IMG/VR virus record: IMGVR_UViG_3300009124_000004
Length of the DNA stretch: 64,000 nucleotides
Direction: 5' to 3' (one strand)
Source: a virus
Shown here: positions 6,454 to 53,800 of the stretch, one piece after another
How positions within the stretch are numbered: the first letter of the stretch is position 1
Layout: every line of letters begins with the position of its first letter
Position numbers and translations under genes: made by a program
The notes under the pieces: generated by a model
Seen by the model: the letters and a program-made list of their open reading frames with translations, nothing else
Databases searched by the model: none
What the model was told of the DNA's origin: nothing

Positions 6454-8682
6454 TCAGGTGAATGTTCCCCCATCAACAGTATCAGTCCAGACGGGGACCC
6501 CAGCAGCAGTTACTGTCAGGATCTGGAATGATGTGGCAACGTCAGGACCAACGCCTGGATTTGCCATGTTTGCAGCAGCGGTTTCTAAAAGTTCACCAGT
6601 GCCGTTTCCGTAAAGGATACCTTTGCTGTTGAACTCAGATCTTCCAGTACCACCGTGCTTGACTGCAAGATCAACATCAAGTTCAAGATCGCCCAGTAAA
6701 ACTGTGCCTCTTGAAACTGTGATAGCAGTTACTCTTAACTGGAGATCATCAGCACCAGCAGAACCACCAATCTGGTTACCAGTGATGGTAAGTAAGTCAC
6801 CTTCTTGATAATATGATCCACCAGCAACAATAGTAACGGAACCACCAGAAATTGCACCAGAACCATCACGTACCACATTAAGGGTCAAACCAGTACCCTC
6901 TCCTCCAGTTGGAGTAAGGTTACTATAGGTCTGATTTGCTGCAGCAGGAAGAGTAGTAACAACTAACTGATCAAGATCATCTTGTTCAATCTTAAGTGAC
7001 TGAACAGCACCTTTAGTGTGAGTAAAGATGTTATTTGTATTAGTAGCATCCTCGATGAATGTGAATGCGCCAAGACCATCTTCACCAGCAGTTCTGTCAA
7101 AACCAAAGAAACCATGCTTAATTACAGAACCATTGTGGTATGAATATTGAATACCACGATCCATACCATCATTAGATCCCTGGGTAATGGTGACAAAATC
7201 ACCAACTGCAATTTCTGCAGAAATTGGAGCACTCAGAGAAAGCGTTGTGGTTTCAAATACAGTTTGATTGCTTGCATCTTTTACAAGACCAACTGTTTGT
7301 GGAGTTCCAGTATTTCCATCAGTTAAAGAATCACCTTCATAGAATGCACTCTCTCTTAGAGAGAGTGATGGAAGTAGTTGAATTCTAACTGTGCTAGAAG
7401 TTTGTGTCTGGAAAGTACCTAATTGTTGATATACACCATCCTTCAAATGATAGATTGCATCACCAATAGATGGTTGTGCAGAGAATCCTGCATCAGTGTG
7501 GAATACAACTACAATTCCACTAATTGTTCTTCCGCCAGTACCAACATTAGTACCAGTTACAAGACCACCAGTTGCGATACCCGATGGATTGTCAACATTA
7601 AGTGTTGACGTAGCAGCAGGTGCCAGTAAAGTAACTGCTTTCTCGGAAGTAGTATCACCGATGTTGAAGACAGGATCGTTGACTGTCATTTCAGTTGAAT
7701 TGACAGTCGTAGTTGTACCAGCAACCTGGAGATTACCACGAACAATCAGATCACCAGCAGCGTCTCCAGCAGTAGGATCAGGATCAAGAATGATCTGAGA
7801 ACCTGACGTTGTGGAGATAGTGTTACCATCAACTCTTAAGTTGTCAACGTTTAACTGACCAGTTAAACTTGTGGTGCCACTGTAAGTGTTATTACCATTA
7901 AAAGTAACATCAGCATTAAATGTCGTAGTTGACTCAACAGTAAGAACATCGCTAGATGCAGTACCAAGCGTTACATCGTTATCAACGACCATGTTGTCGA
8001 TCCAAGCAGTTTGTGCAACTGCAAGACCACCAGCAAGTTTTACAGAACCAGTTGTTGAGTTTGTAGCGTTTGTGGTGTCATTGAATTGAATGGCAACACC
8101 GTTATCAAATGTCCAATCAGCACCATCAACTCTGAGGGTATTAGTTTGATTCTCATCAAAACGCATACCACTGTCTTTGTCACTACCGAAGTAGATACGC
8201 ATATCATCTTGAATGCGTAAATCAGGAACAGTTGATCCAACTCTTCTAATGTCTAATGCTGCATCAGCATCAGTAAAGAGCAGTTCAACATCTCCAGTAG
8301 TACCAAATTCCAGTTCTTGTCCATCTTCAATGACAAGTTTTCCTGTACCGTTTGCTCTAAAAATAAGATCAGTATCAGTAGTATCTGTCTCAATGACATT
8401 AGAATCCAAATTAATGTCGTCTACTCTAAAACGATCAATTTTTGAATTGCTATCTACGATGATACTTGAATCTGCTGTCAGTGTACCATGTACATGATCC
8501 AGCATATCGGTGAAATACTTACCACCGATGATTTGGACTGTTGAATTATTGTCTCCGACGAAAACTCTGTCGCCACGATTGACCTGTGTACCAGCACCAA
8601 CCGTAAGGGCAAGTTCGCCAAATTCTAAGGAAGACGGTACTGTTGTACCCGTACTTCTTTTAATAAGGATGGTTGATGCCAT
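6454..8682 (-). CDS. Tail fibre-like structural protein (742 aa)
   Basis: Mtd_N-like start MASTILIKRSTGTTVPSSLEFGELA; T/G/D-rich shaft (NLRVDGNTISTT, GDLIVRGNLQVAGTTTTVNST); fibre-type C-terminus LAVKHGGTG...DGGTF. Confidence 0.8.
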   Translation of the reverse strand: MASTILIKRSTGTTVPSSLEFGELALTVGAGTQVNRGDRVFVGDNNSTVQIIGGKYFTDMLDHVHGTLTADSSIIVDSNSKIDRFRVDDINLDSNVIETDTTDTDLIFRANGTGKLVIEDGQELEFGTTGDVELLFTDADAALDIRRVGSTVPDLRIQDDMRIYFGSDKDSGMRFDENQTNTLRVDGADWTFDNGVAIQFNDTTNATNSTTGSVKLAGGLAVAQTAWIDNMVVDNDVTLGTASSDVLTVESTTTFNADVTFNGNNTYSGTTSLTGQLNVDNLRVDGNTISTTSGSQIILDPDPTAGDAAGDLIVRGNLQVAGTTTTVNSTEMTVNDPVFNIGDTTSEKAVTLLAPAATSTLNVDNPSGIATGGLVTGTNVGTGGRTISGIVVVFHTDAGFSAQPSIGDAIYHLKDGVYQQLGTFQTQTSSTVRIQLLPSLSLRESAFYEGDSLTDGNTGTPQTVGLVKDASNQTVFETTTLSLSAPISAEIAVGDFVTITQGSNDGMDRGIQYSYHNGSVIKHGFFGFDRTAGEDGLGAFTFIEDATNTNNIFTHTKGAVQSLKIEQDDLDQLVVTTLPAAANQTYSNLTPTGGEGTGLTLNVVRDGSGAISGGSVTIVAGGSYYQEGDLLTITGNQIGGSAGADDLQLRVTAITVSRGTVLLGDLELDVDLAVKHGGTGRSEFNSKGILYGNGTGELLETAAANMANPGVGPDVATSFQILTVTAAGVPVWTDTVDGGTFT

Positions 8683-33359: not shown

Positions 33360-33418
33360 AGTATAGAGACAGGGGGGGTCAGCAGCGAGGGGGGAGGGAC
33401 ACTCCCCCGACTGTCCTC
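33360..33418 (-). promoter_or_regulatory. Early promoter cassette 1 (-10 TATACT + 24-bp palindrome)
   Basis: -10 at 33360-33365; AGGGACACT-cccccg-ACTGTCCTC at 33395-33418; leader GGTTTCAGTTCA. Confidence 0.8.
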
Positions 33419-33608
33419 AGATGGCGCTAGCGCCGACGCTTGCCCAGAAGGCGAGGCGGAGGGTGCTCGCCTTGCTCACCTGCTCAGCGGTCCGACCCAT
33501 GGCACGGGCACCCGCCTTGAGGTCGTTGCGGGTCACGTCTGCCAGGGAGGTGGCACGCTTGCCCGTGATCACGTTGCGTGCTGCCTGGAGGGTCTGTTGC
33601 TTGGTCAT
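33417..33608 (-). CDS. Early hypothetical basic protein (63 aa)
   Basis: Start moved to MTKQQTL, which follows cassette 2 and an A/C-rich leader. Confidence 0.65.
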   Translation of the reverse strand: MTKQQTLQAARNVITGKRATSLADVTRNDLKAGARAMGRTAEQVSKASTLRLAFWASVGASAI

Positions 33609-33630
33609 GGTGTTTGTTTGAACTGAAGTC

Positions 33631-33690
33631 ATTATAGGCATGGGGTGCCCCCCATTCAGGGGGGCGGTGGACAGTGCCCCGATTGTCACT
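33631..33690 (-). promoter_or_regulatory. Early promoter cassette 2 (-10 TATAAT + palindrome)
   Basis: -10 at 33631-33636; GTGGACAGT-gccccg-ATTGTCACT at 33667-33690; leader GACTTCAGTTCA. Confidence 0.82.
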
Positions 33691-33847
33691 CCTCGGGTCC
33701 GAAGGCACACTCTAGAGAGAATGCCTCTAGCATGGCGTCCTCATCCTCGAAGATCATCAGGTCCTCATCCTCGGGAATGTAGGAATCGATCTCATACATC
33801 AGGTCCTCAATCTGGAGGTCCATCAGGTAGGCGTCAGAGACAGGCAT
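33686..33847 (-). CDS. Early extremely acidic protein (53 aa)
   Basis: Start moved to MPVSDAYL; 18 D/E and no K/R. Confidence 0.65.
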   Translation of the reverse strand: MPVSDAYLMDLQIEDLMYEIDSYIPEDEDLMIFEDEDAMLEAFSLECAFGPEE

Positions 33848-33875
33848 GGTTGCTTGTGGTTTGGTTGACTTGCTT

Positions 33876-33934
33876 ACAATAGGCGGTCGGTGTCTATCCG
33901 ACAATGCCTAGGGGTCAGTTAGCGGAGCGGCACA
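33876..33934 (-). promoter_or_regulatory. Early promoter cassette 3 (TTGTCG-N17-TATTGT + palindrome)
   Basis: -10 at 33876-33881; -35 at 33899-33904; GGGGTCAGT-tagcgg-AGCGGCACA at 33911-33934. Confidence 0.72.
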
Positions 33935-34040
33935 CCTCAGCGGTTGCCAGGGATGCCCCTGCCTTCACGCCTTCGATCAGGTAGTCACCGATCAGGAAGG
34001 TAGCAGCGACAGCGACGGCGATGGAGAGAAAGCGTTGCAT
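33915..34040 (-). CDS. Early small hydrophobic peptide (41 aa)
   Basis: Not in the ORF track. Reads MQRFLSIAVAVAATFLIGDYLIEGVKAGASLATAEVCRSAN; directly follows cassette 4. Confidence 0.6.
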   Translation of the reverse strand: MQRFLSIAVAVAATFLIGDYLIEGVKAGASLATAEVCRSAN

Positions 34041-34070
34041 GATGTGGTTGTGGTTGTGTGAACTGAAGTC

Positions 34071-34129
34071 AGTATAGGATCAGGCGATCATCTCGCCTGC
34101 CACGGTCGCCCACTTGATAGGGTGTCCAC
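34071..34129 (-). promoter_or_regulatory. Early promoter cassette 4 (-10 TATACT + palindrome)
   Basis: -10 at 34071-34076; TCGCCCACT-tgatag-GGTGTCCAC at 34106-34129; leader GACTTCAGTTCA. Confidence 0.78.
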
Positions 34130-34283
34130 TGTGGGGGCAGCGCCAGATCACTTGATCCTCGCCCTCTTGAGCGAACACGCGACCTACCCTGTAGGCGTGG
34201 TTGATGTCGGTTGCCCAGAAGCACCCGTGAGGATCGAACGATCCGAAGGAGGCAGGTTGAACAGCGAAGTTAGCGGTTTGCAT
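34080..34283 (-). CDS. Early hypothetical protein (67 aa)
   Basis: Start moved to MQTANFAVQP, downstream of cassette 5. Confidence 0.65.
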   Translation of the reverse strand: MQTANFAVQPASFGSFDPHGCFWATDINHAYRVGRVFAQEGEDQVIWRCPHSGHPIKWATVAGEMIA

Positions 34284-34305
34284 TGGGTTGGTTGCTGATG
34301 TCCTT

Positions 34306-34365
34306 AGTATAGAGGCAGAGGCGATCAGTCGCGGTCGCTGATGTTCCACCTTGCCCACTGTCCCA
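34306..34365 (-). promoter_or_regulatory. Early promoter cassette 5 (-10 TATACT + palindrome)
   Basis: -10 at 34306-34311; TGTTCCACC-ttgccc-ACTGTCCCA at 34342-34365; leader AAGGACAT. Confidence 0.72.
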
Positions 34366-34519
34366 TGGAAGCACCCCAGGAGGGGAAGTCGCTCTCAGGG
34401 GTCAGGATCTCGGTGCTGCCTGCCACGTCTGCCTTAGCAGCGGCAGAGCGTGCCATCATTGCATTGTGCTGGCGGGTGTAATCTGCCATGATCTGCTTGA
34501 GGTCGGGTTGTTTGTTCAT
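34325..34519 (-). CDS. Early hypothetical protein (64 aa)
   Basis: ORF track; ATG immediately after cassette 6. Confidence 0.6.
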   Translation of the reverse strand: MNKQPDLKQIMADYTRQHNAMMARSAAAKADVAGSTEILTPESDFPSWGASMGQWARWNISDRD

Positions 34520-34525
34520 GCTCTT

Positions 34526-34584
34526 AGTATTGCAGGGATCGGAGGGAAAGTCAATAGGGGAGGGACAGTCCCTCAGGTGGCATA
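34526..34584 (-). promoter_or_regulatory. Early promoter cassette 6 (TTGACT-N17-AATACT + palindrome)
   Basis: -10 at 34526-34531; -35 at 34549-34554; AGGGACAGT-ccctca-GGTGGCATA at 34561-34584. Confidence 0.78.
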
Positions 34585-34746
34585 ACGGGTTGCCATGCCC
34601 AGCAGGTCCTTCTCCTGAATGATGGTATCAGCGAAGCGGTGCCAGATGATGCCCATCTCTTGAGGGGTCAGGTAGTCAGGGACGCAGGTCCCACGGTAGG
34701 CACCGAAGGCAGTGCTGAGAGTTTCGATCGCTTGTGCTTTGTTCAT
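34573..34746 (-). CDS. Early hypothetical protein (57 aa)
   Basis: Start moved to MNKAQAIE, because the track's ATG lies upstream of the -10 box. Confidence 0.6.
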   Translation of the reverse strand: MNKAQAIETLSTAFGAYRGTCVPDYLTPQEMGIIWHRFADTIIQEKDLLGMATRYAT

Positions 34747-34752
34747 GTCCTT

Positions 34753-34811
34753 AGTATAGGGCACCAGGGGGGCAGTGGAAGGGGGTGTGTGCCACTATGT
34801 AGACCGTCACA
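34753..34811 (-). promoter_or_regulatory. Early promoter cassette 7 (-10 TATACT + palindrome)
   Basis: -10 at 34753-34758; TGTGCCACT-atgtag-ACCGTCACA at 34788-34811; leader AAGGACATG. Confidence 0.8.
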
Positions 34812-34904
34812 CAATTCTTGATACAAACCAAACGATCAGTTTGTATAACAATTCATACCCTCCTAAGATGATTAGGAGGGCAAGGATTAGCGTCAGCATT
34901 GAGA

Positions 34905-35516
34905 TCACTTAACGACACCATTGATGCGACGGTGAGTAACCCAAGTGATCGCTTGGATCTGGGCAGCACTATACTTAGTGCCTTCCAGGTTGTTGATAGT
35001 AACTGCTGCCTCACGGTAAGCATCACTAACCTGCTTGTAGAGTTTATCACTAATGGCAGGAACTTCGTTGAGTGAAGTATACATGCCCCTCCAGATATTG
35101 AAGGCGTGACCGTCTACAGTAATCTCATCACATTCGCCGTTGGTATAGATGCCACGGAAGAATGCAATCGTTTTGTTACCCTTAAGGATGGCACAAATGT
35201 TGGCGCTAGAGTCAATCTCACACTCTAGAATTGTGATCGCTTTGTCTTTGTTACCAGTGAAAGTGCAGACCTTAGGGTAATCGTATCCCATGCAATATGC
35301 CTTGATCATCTGCTCAGCGTCAAGGATATTGCGATCCCATTTGTTATTCGGAGACAGTGCAGATACAACCCCCACAACTGTAGCGAGAGGCAGGTTGTAT
35401 TTGTCACTCAAACCCTGACAAATAGTGTGGGCATTGTTGTACCAAACCGTACCCTCTTGAGTATCAACAGGCGTTGCCTGCATGTACATAGCGAGGATGT
35501 TGCGAATGTCGGTCAT
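34905..35516 (-). CDS. Conserved phage early protein (203 aa; DUF7178-like, possible HhH-glycosylase-like fold)
   Basis: Start moved to MTDIRNIL; motifs G..WY..AH, VVSALSPNNKWDRN, K.IAF, ITVDGHA, AAQIQAITWV..R. Confidence 0.7.
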   Translation of the reverse strand: MTDIRNILAMYMQATPVDTQEGTVWYNNAHTICQGLSDKYNLPLATVVGVVSALSPNNKWDRNILDAEQMIKAYCMGYDYPKVCTFTGNKDKAITILECEIDSSANICAILKGNKTIAFFRGIYTNGECDEITVDGHAFNIWRGMYTSLNEVPAISDKLYKQVSDAYREAAVTINNLEGTKYSAAQIQAITWVTHRRINGVVK

Positions 35517-35541
35517 GGTGTGGTGTGTGTCCGATGTGCTT

Positions 35542-35599
35542 ACTATAGGGCATCGGCAGCGGTTGTGGGCACTATGCGACCAGTTCAGAAAGTGGCACA
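35542..35599 (-). promoter_or_regulatory. Early promoter cassette 8 (-10 TATAGT + palindrome, apparently shared with a divergent promoter)
   Basis: -10 at 35542-35547; GCGACCAGT-tcagaa-AGTGGCACA at 35576-35599. Confidence 0.72.
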
Positions 35600-35606
35600 A
35601 CCCCTA

Positions 35607-35636
35607 TTGCATTTGGGGGCAGGTTGCCCCTATGCT
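35607..35636 (+). promoter_or_regulatory. Putative rightward sigma70-like promoter TTGCAT-N18-TATGCT
   Basis: -35 at 35607-35612, -10 at 35631-35636; mirror-image position relative to the palindrome at 35576-35599. Confidence 0.5.
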
Positions 35637-35648
35637 AGAGGGAGGCAA

Positions 35649-35851
35649 GAGGGCGGGATCCCCCCTGCTCTCATTGTTTATTCTTTATACTAACTCAGTT
35701 AGAGTTAGTAATACACAGTGAGTTAGAGTTAATAATACTAACTCACTGTGTTATTCTTTATAGACAACGCTGTTGTATTCTAATTACACAGCACTGTGTA
35801 TAAAGAATACACTAAGAGTTAGGTATTCTTTATACTAACTCTTAGTGTATT
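35649..35851 (+). ncRNA. Hairpin array: candidate structured ncRNA or cruciform/origin element
   Basis: Consecutive stems: 35649-57/35664-72 (two G-U pairs only on the + strand), 35688-96/35702-10, 35713-26/35738-51 (14 bp), 35785-91/35794-800 and 35806-22/35835-51 (17 bp perfect); no credible ORF. Confidence 0.45.
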
Positions 35852-35855
35852 ATAA

Positions 35856-36041
35856 TTACTCTTCAAGTAATTCTGGATTGTATTCTTCTACTTCAGTAAT
35901 CAGTTCTTCATCACTATAACTATTAAGATTATCTGTCAGACAATCAATAACAAAACATTCCATAGTTTTCATATCCATGCCTTCCATAATTTGGTAAGCA
36001 TACTTTTCAATAAGTTCTTCACGATTGAAAACTTTTGTCAT
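35856..36041 (-). CDS. Early acidic hypothetical protein (61 aa)
   Basis: Start moved to MTKVFNREELIE; YA..IMEGMDMKT...Y...LITEV.EY.PELLE pattern. Confidence 0.7.
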   Translation of the reverse strand: MTKVFNREELIEKYAYQIMEGMDMKTMECFVIDCLTDNLNSYSDEELITEVEEYNPELLEE

Positions 36042-36092
36042 GTTTGAAGAAAAGTGTTGGTTTTGGTGGGTTTCCCTCCCCGCCACCCCTTT

Positions 36093-36151
36093 AGGATAAT
36101 CGGTAGAGGGAGGGAATGGGGGCATCGGTGGACACCCCCTGTAGTGTCACA
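36093..36151 (-). promoter_or_regulatory. Early promoter cassette 9 (-10 TATCCT + palindrome)
   Basis: -10 at 36093-36098; GTGGACACC-ccctgt-AGTGTCACA at 36128-36151. Confidence 0.75.
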
Positions 36152-36337
36152 TCAGAACAGCATGTCTGCGATCTGCTCCATGATGCTGCCATAGTCGGCA
36201 ATGTGGACCCCGTTGTGACGGATCTCAGCATACCCATGCTCCTGTGCCAGATCGTAGCAGAGGTCGTGGGCACGGTCCAGGTCCAGGACGGACTCGGACT
36301 CGTACATTGCAGAGGGAACCAGGACTTCGTAACGCAT
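36152..36337 (-). CDS. Early hypothetical protein (61 aa)
   Basis: ORF track; follows cassette 10 and an A/C-rich leader. Confidence 0.7.
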   Translation of the reverse strand: MRYEVLVPSAMYESESVLDLDRAHDLCYDLAQEHGYAEIRHNGVHIADYGSIMEQIADMLF

Positions 36338-36361
36338 GTGTGGTTTGTGTGAACTGAAGTA

Positions 36362-36420
36362 ATTATGGCACCCCCCAGGTGGTTCTGGGGGGATTGGTGG
36401 ACACTGGTCAGACCGTCACA
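36362..36420 (-). promoter_or_regulatory. Early promoter cassette 10 (-10 CATAAT + palindrome)
   Basis: -10 at 36362-36367; GTGGACACT-ggtcag-ACCGTCACA at 36397-36420; leader TACTTCAGTTCA; CCCCCAG/CTGGGGG stem in the spacer. Confidence 0.82.
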
Positions 36421-36941
36421 ATACGACGGAGGTCAGCAGTTAGTGGTGCTTCAGTAACGAAATCATACTCGGCAGTGTTAGTATCACCCCAACCAAGTTT
36501 CCATGCTTGCCAACCACTACCAGGAGTGAAGAGATAACACCACTCCTCTCCATTGTTACCACTGAGGAAGTCATCGAAGTCACCCATCTTAGGAGGGGCA
36601 TCTTCACCACGCTCACTGTAATACAGGGGAGCAGGTGACTCTTTCACTGGAGAATAGACCCACTGATTCTTATCGTCGGTCATATACTTGACCTCACGAT
36701 ACTCTTTGCCATCATCATCTTTCTTCATGATGACTTGCTTCAGTGGTGCAGATTCCCACATGTGAGTGGTATACAACGACGACATATCGCCACCGTTGAT
36801 GAGATCTTCAACCAATTCTTTGGTGTTGAAGTGCTCTACCAACTCACGACCATTGCCCTGAATATAACCATCATAGTGGCAGTAAACAGAAACAATCTGA
36901 TCAGGACCGAGAGCGAGACCGATGCGAGAGCGAGTACCCAT
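36408..36941 (-). CDS. Widespread conserved phage early protein with YCHxDGY motif (177 aa)
   Basis: MGTRSRIG...SVYCHYDGY...G.EL...LI.GGD.S.L...EEWCYLF. Confidence 0.8.
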   Translation of the reverse strand: MGTRSRIGLALGPDQIVSVYCHYDGYIQGNGRELVEHFNTKELVEDLINGGDMSSLYTTHMWESAPLKQVIMKKDDDGKEYREVKYMTDDKNQWVYSPVKESPAPLYYSERGEDAPPKMGDFDDFLSGNNGEEWCYLFTPGSGWQAWKLGWGDTNTAEYDFVTEAPLTADLRRIVTV

Positions 36942-36965
36942 GGGGTGTTTGATTGAACTGAAGTT

Positions 36966-37024
36966 ACTATAGGGGGTGGGGTCACCCTTGGCAACCCCTA
37001 GTGGACAGTTCAGGCAGTGACCAC
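36966..37024 (-). promoter_or_regulatory. Early promoter cassette 11 (TTGCCA-N17-TATAGT + palindrome)
   Basis: -10 at 36966-36971; GTGGACAGT-tcaggc-AGTGACCAC at 37001-37024; leader AACTTCAGTTCA. Confidence 0.82.
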
Positions 37025-37237
37025 TTCAGACAGACGACGGTCGGCACGTGCTGCCAGAATGAACTTACCAACGCTCTGCTCATTGGTGATAACTTCCTGC
37101 AGATCTTGCACGAAGGTTTCATTCATTGCGTAGGTGTAATCCTTACCATTGTTATAGGTGAGGGTTGCAGTTTGTGCCTCAGCATCAACCACGATGGGCG
37201 ATTGCAGCATAGACGAGTTGGTGAATTCGATGTTCAT
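37010..37237 (-). CDS. Early small protein, KTSC-like (75 aa)
   Basis: Start moved to MNIEFTNSSM; SS.l...vvD....TATLTYNNGKDYTY...SVGKF resembles the KTSC pattern. Confidence 0.6.
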   Translation of the reverse strand: MNIEFTNSSMLQSPIVVDAEAQTATLTYNNGKDYTYAMNETFVQDLQEVITNEQSVGKFILAARADRRLSEVVTA

Positions 37238-37265
37238 GAGATAGTTGAATGTCAACGACTCATGT

Positions 37266-37324
37266 AATATACAACGGATTCTCCACCCTGTCAACCCCTG
37301 TGGGACACCTTACAAACCGTCCAC
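37266..37324 (-). promoter_or_regulatory. Early promoter cassette 12 (TTGACA-N17-TATATT + palindrome)
   Basis: -10 at 37266-37271; -35 at 37289-37294; TGGGACACC-ttacaa-ACCGTCCAC at 37301-37324. Confidence 0.85.
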
Positions 37325-37702
37325 AGTTCCCACATTTTTGATGTCCAGGTTGTAGTATTTCTTCCTATACTTCATCCATCCTACTGTACCTACATTAGTG
37401 TGCCCTCTATCATTATAGTTGGCACCTCTAATCTCTCCTTTATTGTTATAATTGGCTCCTCTGATAACATTGTAGTTATCTGGACGTTTCTGCCAATTAT
37501 TGCACTTTTCTTTCAATTTCTCAAGATCCTCAGAATTTACAATTGCTATGTAATTCTGATTATATCTCTGAGAAATTCTCTTATACACTCTTTCTGCCAA
37601 TTCTAATGAATAGTAAGGCATTACTACTTCCCTGTAGAATCCTTGCTTCTTTGGCACCCATACCATAATATCATTGTGTTGTAACTTTACGATATAATAC
37701 AC
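37310..37702 (-). CDS. Hypothetical basic protein (130 aa) with an internal duplication IRGANYN
   Basis: ORF track; AT-rich; preceded by the sigma70 promoter at 37750-37778. Confidence 0.55.
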   Translation of the reverse strand: MYYIVKLQHNDIMVWVPKKQGFYREVVMPYYSLELAERVYKRISQRYNQNYIAIVNSEDLEKLKEKCNNWQKRPDNYNVIRGANYNNKGEIRGANYNDRGHTNVGTVGWMKYRKKYYNLDIKNVGTVDGL

Positions 37703-37749
37703 TAGTGTCTTTAAGCTACTTATAGTATATCTATTTACCTGACACAGTT

Positions 37750-37778
37750 ATTCTAGCAGAAATGGGAGGTTTTGTCAA
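37750..37778 (-). promoter_or_regulatory. sigma70-type promoter TTGACA-N17-TAGAAT
   Basis: -35 at 37773-37778, -10 at 37750-37755; lacks a good copy of the 24-bp palindrome. Confidence 0.7.
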
Positions 37779-37815
37779 GTCCTGCAGGTTCTGTCAGGAT
37801 TCTCACAATTCTACA

Positions 37816-38040
37816 GTTTTCCACAGTTTTCTCAGTTTCTGTGGAAAACTCCCAGTTCTATCAGAAATGCTGATATATGCCAGTTCTTGCAGTGTCTGTG
37901 GAAACTTGACAGACGTGTGCAGACGTGCTAAGACCACAAGAACTCAGCACATTTCCACAACTTTTCCACACCCTTGTGGAAAACTAAAGTATATTTATTT
38001 TGATATTAAAACAATTCTCAGTTTCATCAAAATAATTAGT
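37816..38040. promoter_or_regulatory. Cluster of DnaA-box-like 9-mers plus AT-rich tract (oriC-like architecture)
   Basis: TTTTCCACA at 37817 (+), 37840 (-), 37962 (+), 37975 (-); one-mismatch copies at 37897 (-) and 37951 (+); followed by 57 nt (37984-38040) with only 10 G/C. Confidence 0.65.
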
Positions 38041-38220
38041 TCACTGTTTAACTTCTACCCAACATTTAGCAGGACCATCTACTTTATTGTTCCTTTCATA
38101 CAACCAATCAAACATATCTTGTAATTGCTCACACCTTCTCTCCGCATCATGTTGAGTATCAAACCATTCATCCATGTTTGCTACTCGTCCTGGTCTTTGG
38201 AATAGTACCACATACTTCAT
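38041..38220 (-). CDS. Hypothetical protein (59 aa)
   Basis: Below the track cutoff. Reads MKYVVLFQRPGRVANMDEWFDTQHDAERRCEQLQDMF...VKQ; ATGA-coupled to the HNH gene. Confidence 0.6.
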   Translation of the reverse strand: MKYVVLFQRPGRVANMDEWFDTQHDAERRCEQLQDMFDWLYERNNKVDGPAKCWVEVKQ

Positions 38221-38594
38221 TTGTACATACCTCTTTTATATTCTCTGAGAATTCTTTGAACCATTGATCTAGTCATTCCCAATGATTTTGCAATTGTTCC
38301 CATTCCACTCCCATCAATATGTTTACTTACAACTTCATCTGCTTGAGATGAAGTGTAAGATCTCTTCCTTCCAAACTTTACTCCAGATTCTTGTGCTTTA
38401 CGTCTTCCTTCTTTTGCTAATCTCCTCATTTCATTCCAGTATCCTGGTTTTATCTGATGAATCATAGAGTGGTGTTCAGTACACAATGTAAGGAAGTTAT
38501 GTTGATGATCAGTTCCACCCATAACAATAGGTTTGATATGATGATGCTCTAAATTCTTATTAGTGCCACATACCACACAAAATCTCAACTTCAT
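38217..38594 (-). CDS. HNH endonuclease domain fused to a resolvase/invertase-type arm and helix-turn-helix (125 aa)
   Basis: CVVCG...LEHHHIKP...GG...N..TLC..HH..IH, then AKEGRRKAQESGVKFGRKR...GTIAKSLGMTRSMVQRIL. Confidence 0.8.
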   Translation of the reverse strand: MKLRFCVVCGTNKNLEHHHIKPIVMGGTDHQHNFLTLCTEHHSMIHQIKPGYWNEMRRLAKEGRRKAQESGVKFGRKRSYTSSQADEVVSKHIDGSGMGTIAKSLGMTRSMVQRILREYKRGMYK

Positions 38595-38598
38595 AAAT

Positions 38599-38820
38599 TC
38601 ATCTCCAAAAGGTTTTCTTTAATACTGCATAGTTGTTTGCTATTTGGTAAATGTAAGTAATACCTTTAGTAGATGTTGCTACTATCTGATCACCTTGTAC
38701 AATTGCAGTTGCAATATTATTACCAAATGTTTGTATTACACCAGATCTTTGGGATGATCTTAATTGAATGAATCCATTGGATACTGTGGTGTAATATGCT
38801 GGTGGAACTTTGTTAGTCAT
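38599..38820 (-). CDS. Hypothetical protein (73 aa)
   Basis: Start MTNKVPP is ATGA-coupled to the upstream ORF. Confidence 0.6.
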   Translation of the reverse strand: MTNKVPPAYYTTVSNGFIQLRSSQRSGVIQTFGNNIATAIVQGDQIVATSTKGITYIYQIANNYAVLKKTFWR

Positions 38821-39113
38821 GGTAGGGGGACTTCGTAACACATACCTTCTAATACAAAGTATTTACACTCAGAGTGTAATTGGTATCTGTCTTGTAGATC
38901 AAAATCAATAACAGTTTGAATGAAATCTATTTGTTCTTTAACAGATAGATTACCTGATAGAAATTGTGGTAGGTAATCATCTAGTTCATCAAGATAAGAA
39001 TTGGACACGGTTGAGGAATTCTGGGAAAACAAGGACGCCATATTGCATATCTTTTGGCGTAACGACCACATAGAGTTGATTAGTAAAAGTGACTTTAGCA
39101 AGTTGTCCTTCAT
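38817..39113 (-). CDS. Hypothetical protein; true start uncertain (probably downstream, at MASLF or GTG VSNSY)
   Basis: C-terminal part YLDELDDYL...IDFIQ.VIDF.L...C.YFV.EGMCY looks coding; overlaps an alternative frame. Confidence 0.5.
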   Translation of the reverse strand: MKDNLLKSLLLINSMWSLRQKICNMASLFSQNSSTVSNSYLDELDDYLPQFLSGNLSVKEQIDFIQTVIDFDLQDRYQLHSECKYFVLEGMCYEVPLP

Positions 39114-39124
39114 GTAATACTACA

Positions 39125-39322
39125 TCACCCGTTTTCAGTTCCTGTAAACTCTTCGGGGTGTTCCATACGGGCAATCGCTTCGGTAATGGTCTTGAAGTAC
39201 ACTGCGTCTGTGCCTTTGTAGTCACAGTATTCGTATTGGAGTCGCTCATTGTGTAATAGATTACGAATGATCGTGGCGTGTTCGTTATTCAGTGAATACA
39301 TCGTTTCCTTCTGTGGGGTCAT
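39125..39322 (-). CDS. Hypothetical protein (58-65 aa)
   Basis: ORF track; plausible helical protein; start may be MYSLNN at 39301. Confidence 0.5.
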   Translation of the reverse strand: MTPQKETMYSLNNEHATIIRNLLHNERLQYEYCDYKGTDAVYFKTITEAIARMEHPEEFTGTENG

Positions 39323-39455
39323 CGTACTCGTATGAAGAAGTTGTATTTAGTTCTTCTTTGGGCAAGTAATCATCATAGTCGTCCCAGGGTACTTGAATAC
39401 TTTCCCAGAACTCTCCATCTGCTTCAAATGATTCGTTAGTGAGGTCTTCGTACAT
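39285..39455 (-). CDS. Extremely acidic small protein (56 aa)
   Basis: Not in the track. Reads MYEDLTNESFEADGEFWESIQVPWDDYDDYLPKEELNTTSSYEYDDPTEGNDVFTE; 19 D/E and 1 K. Confidence 0.55.
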   Translation of the reverse strand: MYEDLTNESFEADGEFWESIQVPWDDYDDYLPKEELNTTSSYEYDDPTEGNDVFTE

Positions 39456-39463
39456 AATCAGGG

Positions 39464-39616
39464 TTAGAGGGTGGTTGTAGGGTCTTCTGGAGGGGTCTGA
39501 GCGTTGATCTTGCGATAGTCATCATGTAGACGTTGAATCGCTTTTAAGGTATCAGGAGTTTCATCCCATTCCCATGTGTTTCCGTTCTTGTCAATGAATT
39601 GTCTTTTGGTAGTCAT
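39464..39616 (-). CDS. Conserved cyanophage small protein (50 aa)
   Basis: Not in the track. Reads MTTKRQFIDKNGNTWEWDETPDTLKAIQRLH...; overlaps the upstream stop. Confidence 0.65.
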   Translation of the reverse strand: MTTKRQFIDKNGNTWEWDETPDTLKAIQRLHDDYRKINAQTPPEDPTTTL

Positions 39617-39855
39617 AGTTTTCCTCCTACGGTGGCATCACCGACGATTCGTGAATTTTCTTCTAATGACCCATCTTGTTCACATTTAAGATACCAACGG
39701 GTCATGTGTACAATACTCTCTTCAGTTAATCCTGTCAAGAGTTCTCGTCCTTCCTTTGTCACACTAGAATACAATCCACTGCGACGCTTGTAGACACGAA
39801 ATGTATCATCATACCAATGACACTCTGCAATCTCAGGATGCTCTGCCAAATCCAT
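39613..39855 (-). CDS. Conserved cyanophage hypothetical protein (80 aa)
   Basis: Start moved to MDLAEHPEI; WYDDTFRV...GLYSS..KEG..L.T.LT...V..TRWYLK. Confidence 0.65.
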   Translation of the reverse strand: MDLAEHPEIAECHWYDDTFRVYKRRSGLYSSVTKEGRELLTGLTEESIVHMTRWYLKCEQDGSLEENSRIVGDATVGGKL

Positions 39856-40057
39856 TACCTCGCTTGAGTTGTTTGTTGACAATGTACATATCACGCAAGC
39901 GTGACTTGAGATGTCTCAGTTCATCATCATTATACAGATGATCTTTCTTCAATGCTGCTTTGATAGCATTGATCTCTGTTCGTGGAGACCAAATATTAGT
40001 TCCTGGTTGCATACCTGGTACTACTTCTCCATTTTCATCAACTTTCATGCTAATCAT
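39833..40057 (-). CDS. Conserved cyanophage hypothetical protein (74 aa)
   Basis: KAALKKDHLY.DDEL...K..LR...GNGFG. Confidence 0.65.
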   Translation of the reverse strand: MISMKVDENGEVVPGMQPGTNIWSPRTEINAIKAALKKDHLYNDDELRHLKSRLRDMYIVNKQLKRGNGFGRAS

Positions 40058-47200: not shown

Positions 47201-48475
47201 AGTGTATCTAATCCATCAGGAAGAAAACGTTATGGTGGTGCTCAAATTTATGCTAATATTTCTGGTAGTAATTTAGAAGCAGCAATTAACGAGAAGTTAG
47301 GTCCAGGTAATACTTTCCCATATAATAGTTTAATACCTCTTGGTATTTTTGAAGGTATTATTAGAGTAGATGGTGATATTTGGAGTAACACTGCAATTTC
47401 AGGATCTGAGAGATATTATGGAATTTTACGTTTGACTACCGATTTATCATCTGTACCTCAACCAGATAATGGGTACAATCCATTATGGCAGGATGGAACT
47501 CTATCAAGTGATGGACAAACTCAACTTCCAATTAAAATTGATTTTAGTGAATTTCCATCGAGTGCGTTTAATATCACTAAATGGGCGATTCCACCAGCAC
47601 AGGACAATATGCTCCCATATGGCGGAACAGTTTCTTCTGCAAGTAATATTCAAAATGTATATACAAACTATAATAATAGTATTATTGCAAATTCAGATAG
47701 ACAATGGAGAGCAACCACTGATATTACGTTGACACAATCTCAAGCACAAACTTGGTTCTTTAATTCAACCTCGTTGGCACAAGATGATGGAAATGGTAAC
47801 ATTACTTATGTAATGAAGGCAGATACATGGTTTAAAACTTATAGCACTACTGGAAAACTTCTATACTTTGATACATTTGAATCAGTAATTGATACTGAAA
47901 CATTCTTTACATATAGACCATCCTCTTTGACTATTAATGATTCCACTTTTAATGATGATCCAGAATTGATTAACTTGTTTAATAATGATGGTCCGACTAA
48001 AATTACATCAAATACTTATAATGATCAATTCCAGTTTATGCATTATAGGAATAAAATCTATCAAATTATTCCCACATCAACAGATGTTGAAAAGTTGTTC
48101 CCTGGAATTAGAATGATTGATCCTAATCCACAAACAACTGGAGTATTAAACCATCTGGAAAATACTACCAATGCATTATCGGTATATACATTTGCAAACA
48201 CAACAGAGAATAAAGAACTCTGTTGCCCACCACTTGACACATCACCACCATTTGATAGTTCTGAAATTGGTTTATCCACAACCATTTTAAATCCTGATTT
48301 CCACGTTGATGGATTAGTCAATGTCAGAAGTTTGTCTGCAAATCACCCTGAAGACAAAATTCATGCAATTCCTTCTAACATTAACAATACACAATTGCCT
48401 GTTAATGAGAAGTTAGAAATTGTATTTGGTGGTGTTAAGTATGATATGCTAATCGGTAACAGTAAACCTTTCTAA
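44219..48475 (+). CDS. Large virion/fibre-associated structural protein (1418 aa)
   Basis: N-terminal FGLRRDLNLSDL...ALNNIL; FFFGGDGP; CBM-like YKVGDIVSYSSSLWR; possible split PA14-like segment; C-terminal ELCCPPLDT and KLEI..GG.KY module. Confidence 0.85.
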   Translation: MAQKQFNRFGLRRDLNLSDLPSATAALNNILANPTMLGSEASFTTEDLEPIQGIYITNITASTFNSLDGVTVAFTIIENGIVDNSSNPKVYRPLIKIKNRLDAAYFSTGEPFFFGGDGPNATYYDDANIVRDAPAYSSATDTAGDYKVGDIVSYSSSLWRRVQVTQTSIPSNTSEEWFYVAPYTDLFFDDEIDSDGNVTTLTDNFWERGQFVYSDKLQSSFLSLFGGTNWQGFYKPTVSGTTTFLVNTTGSTIFKFQEPASQSFQAVRYGAPSSTVFNYFNTATPINEGSTNYKQSQVTELLTIYNDPTRQLVEVELEDAMNIKHGDLVYLDVEEGQVPAQRYRVLTFFDYDDVQEIPTFYIEVTEEFNKLNLDSSTLPDAIGGYSLSLSDGLFSQNSNLTVQGLKAVVRYTPYDRKNLKTYLNSYRHRTDIDLSAGNAITSATTFTVSDSVYQNIMINDFIYDYRIADDDVDPANTTDEEFEDEQGVRRYIVTACSSSGGVNTITVEIDDSYTEFDDAYNNDQQYYFRYDNTTSEYSIQAQNELDNIKIENTYTTGSLNHTLYSGNTFNKLLHVARMGELTTRQRYITIEQYLDRYVDYIFDWTFFMKDEDVDPNSTNKAWILRQRTETSGGYGLVSYKYLYEKNYEFYQIGDFKTFLDNSVLSGGTSREDGVDQRAFGKKQLITAGDQYNTLYSLLPIKSIYTPQENWNSVALSRTGSISSDSRLLSLNNATDVQVGNYVVRDTSNGFLSGEGIDYGTRIIDVLPESNSVVLNKEAITPFSNQNLWILNHRGFVATGTLTWDGTRHYLQMDSRRVGDIKSGQILVFKDSPSTQTYVRITRVDLEPNDDTIVYVNIDSQNPYPTSNGGSVAVYNDKGIDITKPLQTFCVGTACAQNNYQGDGINKTKYIAFRIFNGDAISGIDIRWTESSLTSGYGNATVTPGTNSNPSRAVFTPTGNTINSSFSNWGTGPSVAWWTDADTGFSYPNQATRVGSVSNPSGRKRYGGAQIYANISGSNLEAAINEKLGPGNTFPYNSLIPLGIFEGIIRVDGDIWSNTAISGSERYYGILRLTTDLSSVPQPDNGYNPLWQDGTLSSDGQTQLPIKIDFSEFPSSAFNITKWAIPPAQDNMLPYGGTVSSASNIQNVYTNYNNSIIANSDRQWRATTDITLTQSQAQTWFFNSTSLAQDDGNGNITYVMKADTWFKTYSTTGKLLYFDTFESVIDTETFFTYRPSSLTINDSTFNDDPELINLFNNDGPTKITSNTYNDQFQFMHYRNKIYQIIPTSTDVEKLFPGIRMIDPNPQTTGVLNHLENTTNALSVYTFANTTENKELCCPPLDTSPPFDSSEIGLSTTILNPDFHVDGLVNVRSLSANHPEDKIHAIPSNINNTQLPVNEKLEIVFGGVKYDMLIGNSKPF

Positions 48476-50859: not shown

Positions 50860-53800
50860 TTATGCGGTCCTTACAATCCAACCTAAGTTTCTTAATTGTT
50901 GAGCAGTTACGACACCACCTTCAATTGATGTCTCAAATCCTTTTTCAACTGTGGTTACAGTAATTTCAATCGTTGCCCCATCGGGAGGGAAACTTGCTCC
51001 CGTATATGAGAATGAATCATTAGCATAATCAATATTCAATAAACTAGTTATATCAACTCCGTCTTGCTTAATTGCAGTGCTATAAGAGAAATTAGCATTA
51101 CCAGGATCTTGACCATCTTTAATATCAATAGTAAAATCTTGTGGATTGAAGAAAGTTTGCTGTGGATTTAGTGGATCAGTTTGTGATACCGCAAAAGATT
51201 CAATTTGAGTCGTTGTGGTGGTTGTCGGAGTACTGATTGTTACACTAGATGGAGCAGAATTGCCTTGCAAATTAACTACAACTCCAGTTCTTGGTGCATT
51301 ATTGTAATTATCAACCATTTCAAGAAGAATATCATCAACGGTTGACTGATTTAAACCATTATTTGATAAATCAAGAGATCTTAATCTAGTACATTGAGCA
51401 AACAATCCTGGAGTAAATGGTGCAGAAGGTGATGGACTTCCGTAGAGGTTATTAGCAAATGAAATGTATTGGATATTTGGAGCAACAACACTAAAATTGG
51501 GGAATTGCCCCGTCATTTGATTGTTTGATACAATGAAATATTGAAGAGCACCTAGTCCTGAGAAGTTATTAAGATCAATACCTTGAATAATATTACTATT
51601 GACGTAGAATCTTTGTAGTTTTGATGTTCCACTCAAAACAATATTTCCACTAAAATTATTACCACTTAGATTAACTTCAATTAAATTTGGATTACTACCA
51701 AATGAAGGAATGGGAGCACCGCCAGCAATATCAAGACCCCAACCACTAGATGGAGAATACAAGTATTTTAAATTAGGTGCTCCACCAGTATTAAAGAATG
51801 TACCTCTCAGTAACTTGTTAGTGCTAACAATTTCAATTGTTTCTAGCAATGGGAGATTAAATGTTGCCCCCTGGAATCCTGCTTCTGTATATGCCTGAGT
51901 AGAAGGATTGTAGATACCAATGTTTCTACCCAATTCACCACTTCTGATTCTAATCGCCCTAAGTGACTGTGCATCTTCAAAGGTATCGTCCCACATTACA
52001 TATCTTCTACCAGAAAGAGAAGAACTAGCATCTTTTGGTCTTCCTCCCTCAATGCTAGTGTATCTAAAATCAATACTGGTTAAAGATGAGTTACCAATAA
52101 ACTTAGGAATCATTCCATCTAATCTAGATGCATAAAATGATAATGAAGACAGATTAGAACATCCTGATAATGCATATTCAGATTCTTGTGTTGGCCATTT
52201 ATTGTTAAATAAATGATTTGTTCTTCCACTTGGATTGCCGTCACCATTTGCATTTACATAACCACCACTTGGATGGGAAATACTATATGCCGTTGGATTT
52301 GATGTACTTCTACCTGGAAATCTAGTGTAACTACAAGTCAGAGATCTTAACGATGAGTTGCCAGCAAGATTAGATGGAATCGGTAAAGCAGTATCAACAA
52401 TATTGATACTGTTAATTTGAGTCATTTTACCAAAATCAACACTATCTGCTGATTCACTTAACCCTTCGTTATCACCTACAGTAAATGATGTTAGTGTGCT
52501 AGAACCATTAATATATGTTGAAGGATTTACAAAGATATCAGATAACTTAGTATAGTTATTATCATAAATGTCATATGTTCTAATTGTCTCCAAATCAACT
52601 GTTGGTGAATATTCTTGAGATGTCTGATAAGAGACATTTGCTAAAGTTCCACTTGGAACTGGACCTCTAGTATTCGTATTTTTATAAATTCTTCTACCAG
52701 CAGAATTCCTCATGTAGAGTGTTTGAAGATTGGGGCATCTAGTTGCCAGATTTAGTGGGAGGAAATAATTTTTATACAAAACAAAAGAACTCTGCACCAA
52801 TTGCTGCCAATCTGCTTCACTTGAAACCTCACTACTTAACCAACTAGAATTATCAGTCAATTTTGGTTCCTTAATGTATACCATGTATGCACCCGTAATG
52901 GGGTGAACCTGCTTGTCCCAATAATATCCTTCAATGTTGGTTGTAACAGTAGAACCACCGCTTGTTAGTACTTGAGAGAAGTCATAATCTTGCTTAGTTG
53001 TTGGATCAACGGCAATCGAAAGATATTCCTGTTGATGAGTTATCAATACACATGACTCATTCAAAGTTTTAAATGTTGTGTGTGCATTGTATGTACCAGA
53101 TGCATAAAACTCAGTAAGTTTTCTAGGTAATCTTTCTACAACATTAGTTCCAAACTGCTGCAGTTCTTCTTCATCAGTTTGATTTAGAGGATTATTTTGT
53201 ATGTTGATAATAGTTAAATTGGTCTCTGGAGCATTTGTTGGTGTAGTCCTATCGTATGCATAAGTAATCTCTCTCCAATCGGGCATCTCACCAATAAGAT
53301 TGTTTGTGATAGTAATATCTTGCAATTCAAAAAACTTAACTGCTGGTAGGTTACGAATGTTTAATGAATTTGCAGTAATGCCTACAATATTATTAGGTGG
53401 ATAGTATACTTTTACATATCTCTCTTTGTATGATGGTCCGTTATATCTTAATCTTGACGTTCCACCCGATACTGGTGGTGTGGATTGGATTTCAGATTCA
53501 GATCCATCAGTTGCTTGCAATGTGTAGATGGGATTACCACTAGGAATTGTGGTAAATCTGAAATCCATAGCAATGTTCTTAAATGCTGTGGTAAAGATAA
53601 TGGGAATACCACGCATAGCATAGATATATCTGGTATTACCATTCAATTCAATCTCCAGCACATCTGTAGCAACTTCAGTTGCAAATCGAATTGGTTCTGG
53701 AGTATCCAATACATTAATAACTGCTTCAGTGGGACCAGGACCACTCCAAGATCCTCTTTGTCCCACTTTAACAGTGCCTTTTACTTGAACAGATGCACCA

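Follow-up and report, generated by a model that had tools for sequence, protein, structure and literature searches.

A conserved promoter and DnaA-box module in T4-like Synechococcus phages: a probable recruitment site for host DnaA and a candidate T4-style origin

What would a cluster of cyanobacterial-type DnaA boxes do in the genome of a T4-like phage? The question is raised by a viral DNA of 64,000 nucleotides (IMG/VR record IMGVR_UViG_3300009124_000004, the whole of which is called here the window), in which a first-pass annotation had noticed such boxes beside an AT-rich tract and had proposed a DnaA-assisted phage origin, a sink that titrates DnaA, or DnaA-linked control of an adjacent promoter. 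The window comes from a divergent T4-like myovirus of Synechococcus (Kyanoviridae) with baseplate genes and giant fibre open reading frames (ORFs); its DNA matches are to Synechococcus phages only, and public runs place it in estuary, salt-marsh and freshwater metagenomes. The boxes lie in a 338-bp spacer (37703-38040) between two leftward small genes, orf59 and orf130, within a hyperplastic early region made of promoter cassettes. Comparison with related loci suggests that this spacer is probably a conserved cis-acting module that recruits host DnaA. Of an origin, a sink and promoter control, the reading that we favour, tentatively, is a T4-style origin.

The perfect box TTTTCCACA occurs five times in the window against 1.38 copies expected from shuffled sequences, close to the single chance copy that had been estimated roughly at first. 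Four of the five fall within 167 bp and form two inverted pairs (37817+/37840- and 37962+/37975-), just as the first-pass annotation had them, while the fifth, at 44534 (+), is isolated within a 1418-aa ORF. The two one-mismatch boxes previously seen at 37897- and 37951+ are also present, so that the 167 bp hold four perfect and two 8/9 boxes, far over chance; by our arithmetic, the Poisson probability of at least four boxes in any 167-bp stretch of the window is ~1e-9. One-mismatch 9-mers as a class are not enriched across the window (16 against 29.7 expected), therefore the cluster is local and not an effect of composition. The arms of the first pair make a perfect palindrome (AGTTTTCCACAG / CTGTGGAAAACT). 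Other one-mismatch box-like 9-mers are grouped at 48085-48280 and 53548-53595 within the giant fibre ORFs (e.g. TTTACCACA, twice, 39 nt apart) and are most likely coding repeats unrelated to the cluster.

The boxes are accompanied by two divergent promoters and an AT-rich block (Table 1). The leftward promoter, P_L, had been named as the adjacent promoter at 37750. It scores 11 of 12 consensus matches plus a TG extension in the promoter scan and is kept in the orthologues; judged by this consensus it appears to be a real and strong promoter that would drive orf130 and the early genes downstream. It is, however, merely half of a divergent pair, the other half of which, the putative rightward promoter P_R, had been overlooked inside the cluster. 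P_R contains a conserved word, CTAAGACCACAAGAAC (37928-37943), opposes the gene flow and all neighbouring genes, and has boxes on either side, an 8/9 box abutting its -35 and the box triplet at ~+10 to +43. The AT-rich block starts ~43 nt past the predicted P_R start. Its AT content agrees with the earlier value of about 82%, and its richest 50-mer (84% AT) ranks in the top 0.03% of the window. It holds a conserved 27-mer, AAGTATATTTATTTTGATATTAAAACA (37987-38013), and also the leftward late-promoter-like 8-mer that had been noted there, TATTTATT at 37992-37999, which reads AATAAATA on the minus strand. The locus combines DnaA boxes with an adjoining AT-rich candidate unwinding region, as a bacterial oriC does, and a putative promoter with an A+T-rich candidate unwinding element within ~100 bp downstream, as a T4 origin does.

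Table 1. Coordinates of the DnaA boxes, promoters, AT-rich block and flanking genes in the window
Feature	Position	Strand	Description
Box pair 1	37815..37850		TTTTCCACA 37817-37825 (+), 14-nt spacer, TGTGGAAAA 37840-37848 (box on -)
8/9 box	37897..37905	-	GTTTCCACA, + strand reading TGTGGAAAC; abuts the P_R -35
Box triplet	37951..37983		ATTTCCACA 37951-37959 (+, 8/9), 2 nt, TTTTCCACA 37962-37970 (+), 4 nt, TGTGGAAAA 37975-37983 (box on -)
P_L	37750..37778	-	sigma-70: TTGACA 37778-37773, 17-nt spacer, TAGAAT 37755-37750, TG extension
P_R (putative)	37906..37943	+	TTGACA 37906-37911, 17-nt spacer, TG 37926-37927, TAAGAC 37929-37934
AT-rich block	37984..38040		57 nt, 82.5% AT; candidate unwinding element
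orf130	37310..37702	-	unknown function, no PHROG; downstream of P_L
orf59	38041..38220	-	unknown function; 3' end touches the AT-rich block; a P_R transcript would be antisense

A plus-strand open frame of 120 codons (37762-38124) spans the spacer, but is open in this phage only. The longest open frames in three orthologous regions have 25-87 codons, and the indels among these regions are not multiples of three. Since the frame is not kept and the indels break it, codons are not the cause of the 9-mers, and a translated gene, the objection that the first-pass annotation had itself raised, is rejected as their origin: the region is non-coding.

Orthologous spacers were fetched through a neighbouring gene (36408-36941) and hence were not ascertained through the boxes; orf130 used as bait returned no loci. 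The orf59-spacer-orf130 arrangement is orthologous to the window in three lineages (L259/L260, L274 and L265), in all of which an orf130 homologue adjoins the same spacer; orf130 homologues are not found at the module in other genera. Both arms of box pair 1 are invariant in L260, L274 and L265, against 2 of the 14 spacer columns. The 21-mer AGTGTCTGTGGAAACTTGACA, linking the third box to the P_R -35, is invariant in the four orthologues, in whose alignment the TGCTAAG core of the promoter word and the last inverted box are invariant or nearly so, the 27-mer of the AT-rich block is nearly invariant, and the register of the boxes to the divergent promoter pair is fixed. The box blocks, though non-coding, are better conserved than the adjoining coding end, and where one box has decayed (L265), its partner carries no compensating change. 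That the arms are kept while the spacers diverge argues for selection on the boxes themselves. Among the other loci obtained through the neighbouring gene, L262-264 have a variant with two direct boxes, and L266-270 and L272 have no perfect box. The loop of box pair 1 contains a TTCTCA/TGAGA word in all orthologues.

The module is not restricted to this lineage. Scanning IMG/VR for TTTTCCACA-N(1-30)-TGTGGAAAA returned at least 120 loci, mostly on low-GC contigs. Among the matches listed (145 convergent pairs) the gap lengths are sharply non-random: the gap is 4 nt in 21, 14 nt in 37, 15 nt in 16 and 25-26 nt in 17, that is, steps of one helical turn with 14 the commonest, these counts coming from partly related loci and not being independent. 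The pairs of the window use gaps of 4 and 14, and a like preference is seen in the box pairs of bacteria (3-5 and 13-15 nt). The grammar of the module consists of TTGACA, 16-17 nt, (TG)CTAAGAC.ACAAGAAC and, 17-110 nt further on, a set of two or three boxes, which an AT-rich stretch precedes or follows. Clustering in related phages, on which the first-pass annotation had staked its proposal, does recur: the module is found in the same antisense orientation in S-PM2, S-RIM32, S-RIM2, Sf-CH11 and Syn9 and in many uncultured contigs, and in the cultured phages it always lies in unannotated or dubiously annotated DNA; its position is ~19.2 kb in S-PM2, ~48.1 kb in S-RIM2 and ~52.6 kb in Syn9. The P_R-type element TTGACA-17-TGnTAAGAC is conserved in at least five genera and recurs in 25 modules among the fetched loci; the module promoter always faces converging early genes and leads into no ORF. 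The direct-direct-inverted layout of the box triplet is seen also in S-PM2 (gaps 3 and 4) and S-RIM32 (gaps 3 and 5). Some modules have direct repeats only, which are unable to pair, such as those of Sf-CH11 (three), L263 and the L012 type (four to five). In a second architecture (L012, L020, L057, L086, L103 and L022) a canonical TTGACA-17-TATAAT stands five bases upstream of the same word, together with 6-8 perfect boxes in ~330 bp; L012 and L086 encode T4-type baseplate and cyanophage early genes.

Usually one box locus per genome holds most of the perfect boxes, whereas S-RIM32 and L008 have two. The relative G014, 99% complete, served for counting boxes across a whole genome, and five of its seven perfect boxes are at the main locus; the corresponding counts are 4/6 in G016, 3/8 in S-PM2, 3/5 in S-RIM2, 5/5 in S-RIM32 (as two clusters 1 kb apart) and 2/4 plus an 8/9 box in Syn9. 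No cluster was found in S-CAM4, S-H9-2, S-RSM4, P-SSM2, P-SSM4, P-HM2 or S-SSM7, and those of them searched for the module word lack it as well; matches to GCTAAGAYNACAA in P-SSM2, P-HM2 and S-SSM7 lie inside genes and were set aside as chance. S-SM1 has boxes and lacks the exact module word. The module is thus widespread but accessory and, in the cultured set, confined to Synechococcus phages.

Several observations were made around these loci. Repeat arrays of the GAGATTTT / AAATCTCA type, either iteron-like or strongly phased A-tracts, are found next to the module in S-PM2, S-RIM32, Sf-CH11 and a number of contigs (L121 5984-6138; L126 ~2480-2630; L258 ~960-1070; L008 ~8230-8400; L015 ~840-900). 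In S-PM2 the array repeats every 17 bp and three of its copies are perfect, whereas in the window such repeats are present only as traces (TTCTCAGTTTC at 37829 and 38015). The module also helps annotation, as it flags features that overlie it. ARAGORN finds none of the RefSeq 'tRNA-Leu/Asn/Met/Ala/Thr' features of S-PM2 (L121, NC_006820; 6264-7091), and the tRNA-Asn/tRNA-Leu annotation over the S-PM2 module was accordingly rejected; in Syn9 (L306, 1978-2298), the ORFs gp86 and gp87, of ~53 aa each, overlie the box cluster and the antisense promoter. These tRNA features and ORFs are probably spurious. Some high-GC 'viral' contigs (L079, GC 0.60; L107) and the Cyanaurora contig L190, with 5-8 perfect boxes in <150 bp, resemble bacterial origins or loci regulated by DnaA rather than phage modules.

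Which protein would bind the boxes? That TTTTCCACA is a typical cyanobacterial DnaA box, as had been asserted, is documented by the binding of DnaA domain IV in vitro (PMC4674748). One-mismatch variants near the phage clusters are changed at positions 1-3 in 40 of 54 cases and at positions 4, 8 and 9 in one of 54, and include T3A, which gives the E. coli box, while in background 9-mers the mismatches fall mostly at positions 6 and 8 (Fisher p = 5e-13). Read from these variants, the pattern corresponds to the degeneracy of TT(A/T)TNCACA, in which the T at position 4 and the 3' CACA are fixed and the 5' positions are tolerant. The boxes occur in direct, convergent and divergent orientation and are helically phased, an arrangement that suits an oligomerising monomer and not a dimer of fixed spacing. 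The same layouts recur in a cyanobacterial oriC-like cluster (L190), which has one convergent pair at gap 4, its loop being ACCC, and direct boxes spaced by 2 and 12 nt. The candidacy of a phage-encoded DnaA-like protein found no support: the Bac_DnaA_C domain (DnaA domain IV) is absent from the five phage genomes searched, two of them complete relatives, in line with the earlier statement that such phages encode no DnaA, and DnaA is encoded in 13 of the 13 host-family genomes sampled. No phage gene is consistently linked to the module, the flanking genes varying between genera. Taken as a set, these features make host DnaA the likely binder, and we hold this with good confidence.

The phage array does not copy the origin of its host. 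In eight host-family genomes, the origin spacer between thrC and dnaN has 0-1 perfect boxes among many degenerate ones, against 4-8 perfect boxes per phage locus; as a box array the phage locus is therefore the stronger of the two, and the name 'oriC mimic', given in the first-pass annotation, is loose. The module shares with cyanobacterial oriC the 9-mer TTTTCCACA itself, tandem boxes with 2-3 nt gaps, direct boxes one or two helical turns apart, 4-nt-gap convergent pairs (as in the Cyanaurora contig) and an adjoining AT-rich block; it differs in being carried by a lytic phage, away from dnaA and dnaN and flanked instead by two small phage genes, in having an embedded promoter and in lacking an evident DnaA-trio. 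The marine picocyanobacterial origin spacers (L247-L256) show the degenerate box forms TTTTCCCCA and TTTCCACA, and all finish with a conserved 'CCTACTAC' block ahead of dnaN.

We propose, as a tentative reading, that the module is a T4-style origin made of a promoter and an unwinding element, with DnaA as a helper or gate. The minimal origins of T4, of ~100 bp, consist of a promoter and a downstream A+T-rich unwinding element that can be replaced by heterologous ones, and oriE has an early promoter that needs no phage factor, together with iterons (PMC3016281). A transcription-activated origin is favoured because the module has this grammar, namely P_R followed by the AT-rich block from ~+43, and because iteron-like arrays stand beside the S-PM2 module. 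The likeness to oriF, oriG and oriE would extend to a promoter recognised early, an A+T-rich unwinding element within ~100 bp, a transcript that is non-coding in function and a T4-like myovirus as carrier, and the likeness to oriE also to the factor-independent early promoter and the iteron-like repeats. The T4 origins, however, have no DnaA boxes, serve a DnaA-independent replication and share no motif, whereas the module, a putative origin, is a conserved sequence family. As for the replication machinery, cyanomyoviruses possess the T4 replisome and recombination genes, and their only origin on record is the single theta origin predicted for Syn9 (PMC2984593).

According to the T4-style model, P_R would be fired by host RNA polymerase against the flow of the early genes, and its transcript would cross three DnaA boxes and enter the AT-rich block. 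Either a persistent RNA-DNA hybrid or a DnaA-opened bubble at this block could then let the phage replisome assemble. DnaA would occupy all six phased boxes, three on either side of P_R, and would either help to melt the AT-rich block or act as a gate on the promoter; in this way phage replication would be tied, in its first round, to the replication-competent state of the host. We infer all three elements of this scheme: DnaA binding, the activity of P_R and the start of replication at the module.

Several points weigh against an origin. The module is missing from about half of the 16 Kyanoviridae genomes checked, and for this reason it cannot be the essential origin of the family. T4-like phages are self-sufficient in helicase, loader and primase, and T4 has no need for DnaA. 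The GC-skew signal that the first-pass annotation had suggested looking for did not appear in Syn9, where the cumulative skew changes monotonically, reaches its extreme at 0-5 kb and does not bend at the module (52.5 kb); the published single-origin prediction for Syn9 presumably rests on that extreme. P_R was not called by the promoter scan, its -10 being without the near-invariant final T, and its transcript would be A/C-rich and not of the G-rich type that favours R-loops. RNA contigs over 37730-38140 amount to one 80-nt contig of depth 4, a weak negative since the contigs come from related strains, and metatranscriptome contigs cannot reveal short or rare RNAs. Inspection of 37984-38015 by eye revealed no evident DnaA-trio array in the AT-rich block; the minus strand there has six successive NAN triplets, two of which fit the trio consensus, which is the chance level for an AT-rich tract.

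Contigs from RNA libraries span 36400-37725 and end just short of P_L, compatible with a start near 37743, though not proof of it. Metatranscriptome contigs (aquatic, salt-marsh and estuary; 90-99% alike) cover the three genes after P_L at up to ~290x word depth, and 37730-39100 barely; from the deep coverage of these genes it follows that early genes of related phages are abundant in field RNA libraries.

A wider form of the T4-style proposal would be that many marine and estuarine Synechococcus T4-like phages start their first replication at a single hybrid locus, composed of a T4-type origin and a DnaA array stronger than the host oriC, the start being conditional on the host initiator and, via it, on a light-, energy- and cell-cycle-dependent licence. 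This generalisation is speculative and we consider it unlikely.

The best surviving of the rivals is a DnaA-dependent transcription switch or insulator, in which DnaA on the phased boxes represses or blocks P_R; we rate it as somewhat unlikely, though a serious contender. DnaA-box complexes repress promoters, as in dnaA autoregulation, and block elongating RNA polymerase, as at the E. coli asnC terminator, and both abilities count in its favour. So do the boxes that bracket the divergent promoter pair in a position fixed in four orthologues, the sporadic distribution, which suits a regulatory accessory better than an origin, and a second gap-3/4 box pair that S-RIM32 and L008/L011 carry at a gene end before the next early promoter, in the place of a T4-type stem-loop terminator. 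Such a switch may also modulate P_L, box pair 1 lying ~40-70 nt upstream of its -35, or may form a roadblock against read-through between early cassettes, and early expression or the antisense control of orf59 would then follow the DnaA status of the host. It leaves unexplained, however, the conserved AT-rich block right after the boxes, for which the leftward late promoter (AATAAATA) could account in part, and the 7-8 perfect boxes in ~330 bp of the L012, L086 and L020 types far exceed what a repressor site needs.

The boxes might also be no DnaA sites at all, but RNA or DNA hairpins, such as the terminators of a mobile promoter cassette (PeSL type), or sites of another protein, their match to the DnaA box being a coincidence. 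The two inverted pairs do fold as single strands (-11.0 and -7.6 kcal/mol, z = -6.0 and -3.6), the hyperplastic early region is built from promoter cassettes, and the palindrome of the other early promoters of this phage, though a different one, has a half-site that is similar in part (TGTGACA / GTGGACA). PeSL cassettes, too, have a strong sigma-70 promoter preceded by stem-loops and lie between small early genes of a hyperplastic region. They are, however, terminators at many gene boundaries, whereas the stems of the module are the boxes themselves, at one locus per genome and not at each cassette; neither stem is followed by a U-tract, no intrinsic terminator or terminator-like site was called, and the cassette is not repeated in the window, where thirteen other early promoters use the different palindrome. 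Covariation of the arms is never seen, each arm being the same 9-mer throughout, clusters of direct repeats exist that cannot pair, helical phasing of the gaps is a property of duplex DNA, the variant pattern fits the specificity of DnaA, and no phage gene is consistently linked. We therefore regard a non-DnaA explanation as improbable.

Least likely of all, and in our judgement quite improbable, is a datA-like sink devoid of any function in cis, by which multiplying phage genomes absorb DnaA and halt new host rounds: four perfect and two near-perfect boxes against 0-1 in the host origin spacers, and a host complement of 24 perfect boxes in one marine Synechococcus genome (1.9 Mb) that about a hundred phage copies would outnumber, are in its favour, but a sink needs neither a fixed promoter register nor an antisense promoter nor an AT-rich block, all of which are conserved, a single infecting genome adds no more than six sites at the stage at which a block on host initiation would count, and about half of the relatives do without the module. 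Dense high-affinity boxes distant from the chromosomal origin are common to the module, E. coli datA and the DnaA-box clusters of Bacillus, but the latter two are chromosomal, depend on IHF or YabA and have no conserved grammar of promoter and unwinding element.

The T4-style origin with DnaA as helper or gate would have precedents outside the T4-like phages. P1 oriR, the iteron origins of pSC101, F and R6K, the activation of ori-lambda from lambda pR and primosome loading at the A site of R-loop plasmids are all cases of replicons that use DnaA. Like the module, these replicons borrow host DnaA through a few consensus boxes by an AT-rich region, iterons or an activating promoter, and the A site offers a further likeness: once a single strand is displaced, a convergent box pair on it would fold back into a stem in which a DnaA box is double-stranded. 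They differ in that they belong to temperate phages or plasmids, which also rely on the host helicase; none is T4-like and virulent with a full replisome, and no Rep-type initiator is linked to the module. DnaA boxes are well known in temperate phage and plasmid replicons; in the literature we found no description of DnaA boxes in cyanophages or T4-like phages.

T4-like cyanophages are among the most abundant viruses of the sea, and the start of their replication is known only as a skew-based guess for Syn9. The module provides a concrete, mutable and easily recognised locus in cultured, tractable phages (S-PM2, S-RIM2, Syn9 and S-RIM32) and raises the questions of whether a virulent phage still makes use of the initiator of its host despite a complete replisome of its own and whether phages manipulate host DnaA. 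A coupling of cyanophage replication to the replication competence of the host, if true, would matter for how light-dependent infection and pseudolysogeny are understood.

Searches with the larger locus added little: the whole of 37300-38600 had no match in cultured-phage DNA, from which the module was recovered only by a short permissive query, an Rfam scan of 36000-40000 gave no relevant family, and the 64-kb window contains no tRNA. Two genes from the cluster, an HNH endonuclease fused to a resolvase-type HTH is encoded at 38217-38594 (-), with PHROG matches to HNH and DNA-invertase. As a partner of the cluster it was rejected, no homologue being present in any orthologous (L259/L260, L265, L274) or module-bearing locus; it is probably a lineage-specific, recent homing-type insertion outside the module.

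The other early promoters of the window differ from P_L, whose class has no palindrome and a perfect -35. Thirteen such sites (33395-37324 and 43888) are without a -35 and have a 24-bp palindrome, TGTGACAnT-N6-AnTGTCCAC, which ends 29 nt before the -10; the interval between the two often contains a C-run/G-run stem. They look activator-dependent, a class apart from P_L. In S-RIM32, a promoter of the same palindrome type directly follows the second DnaA-box pair (L126 ~3385-3440).

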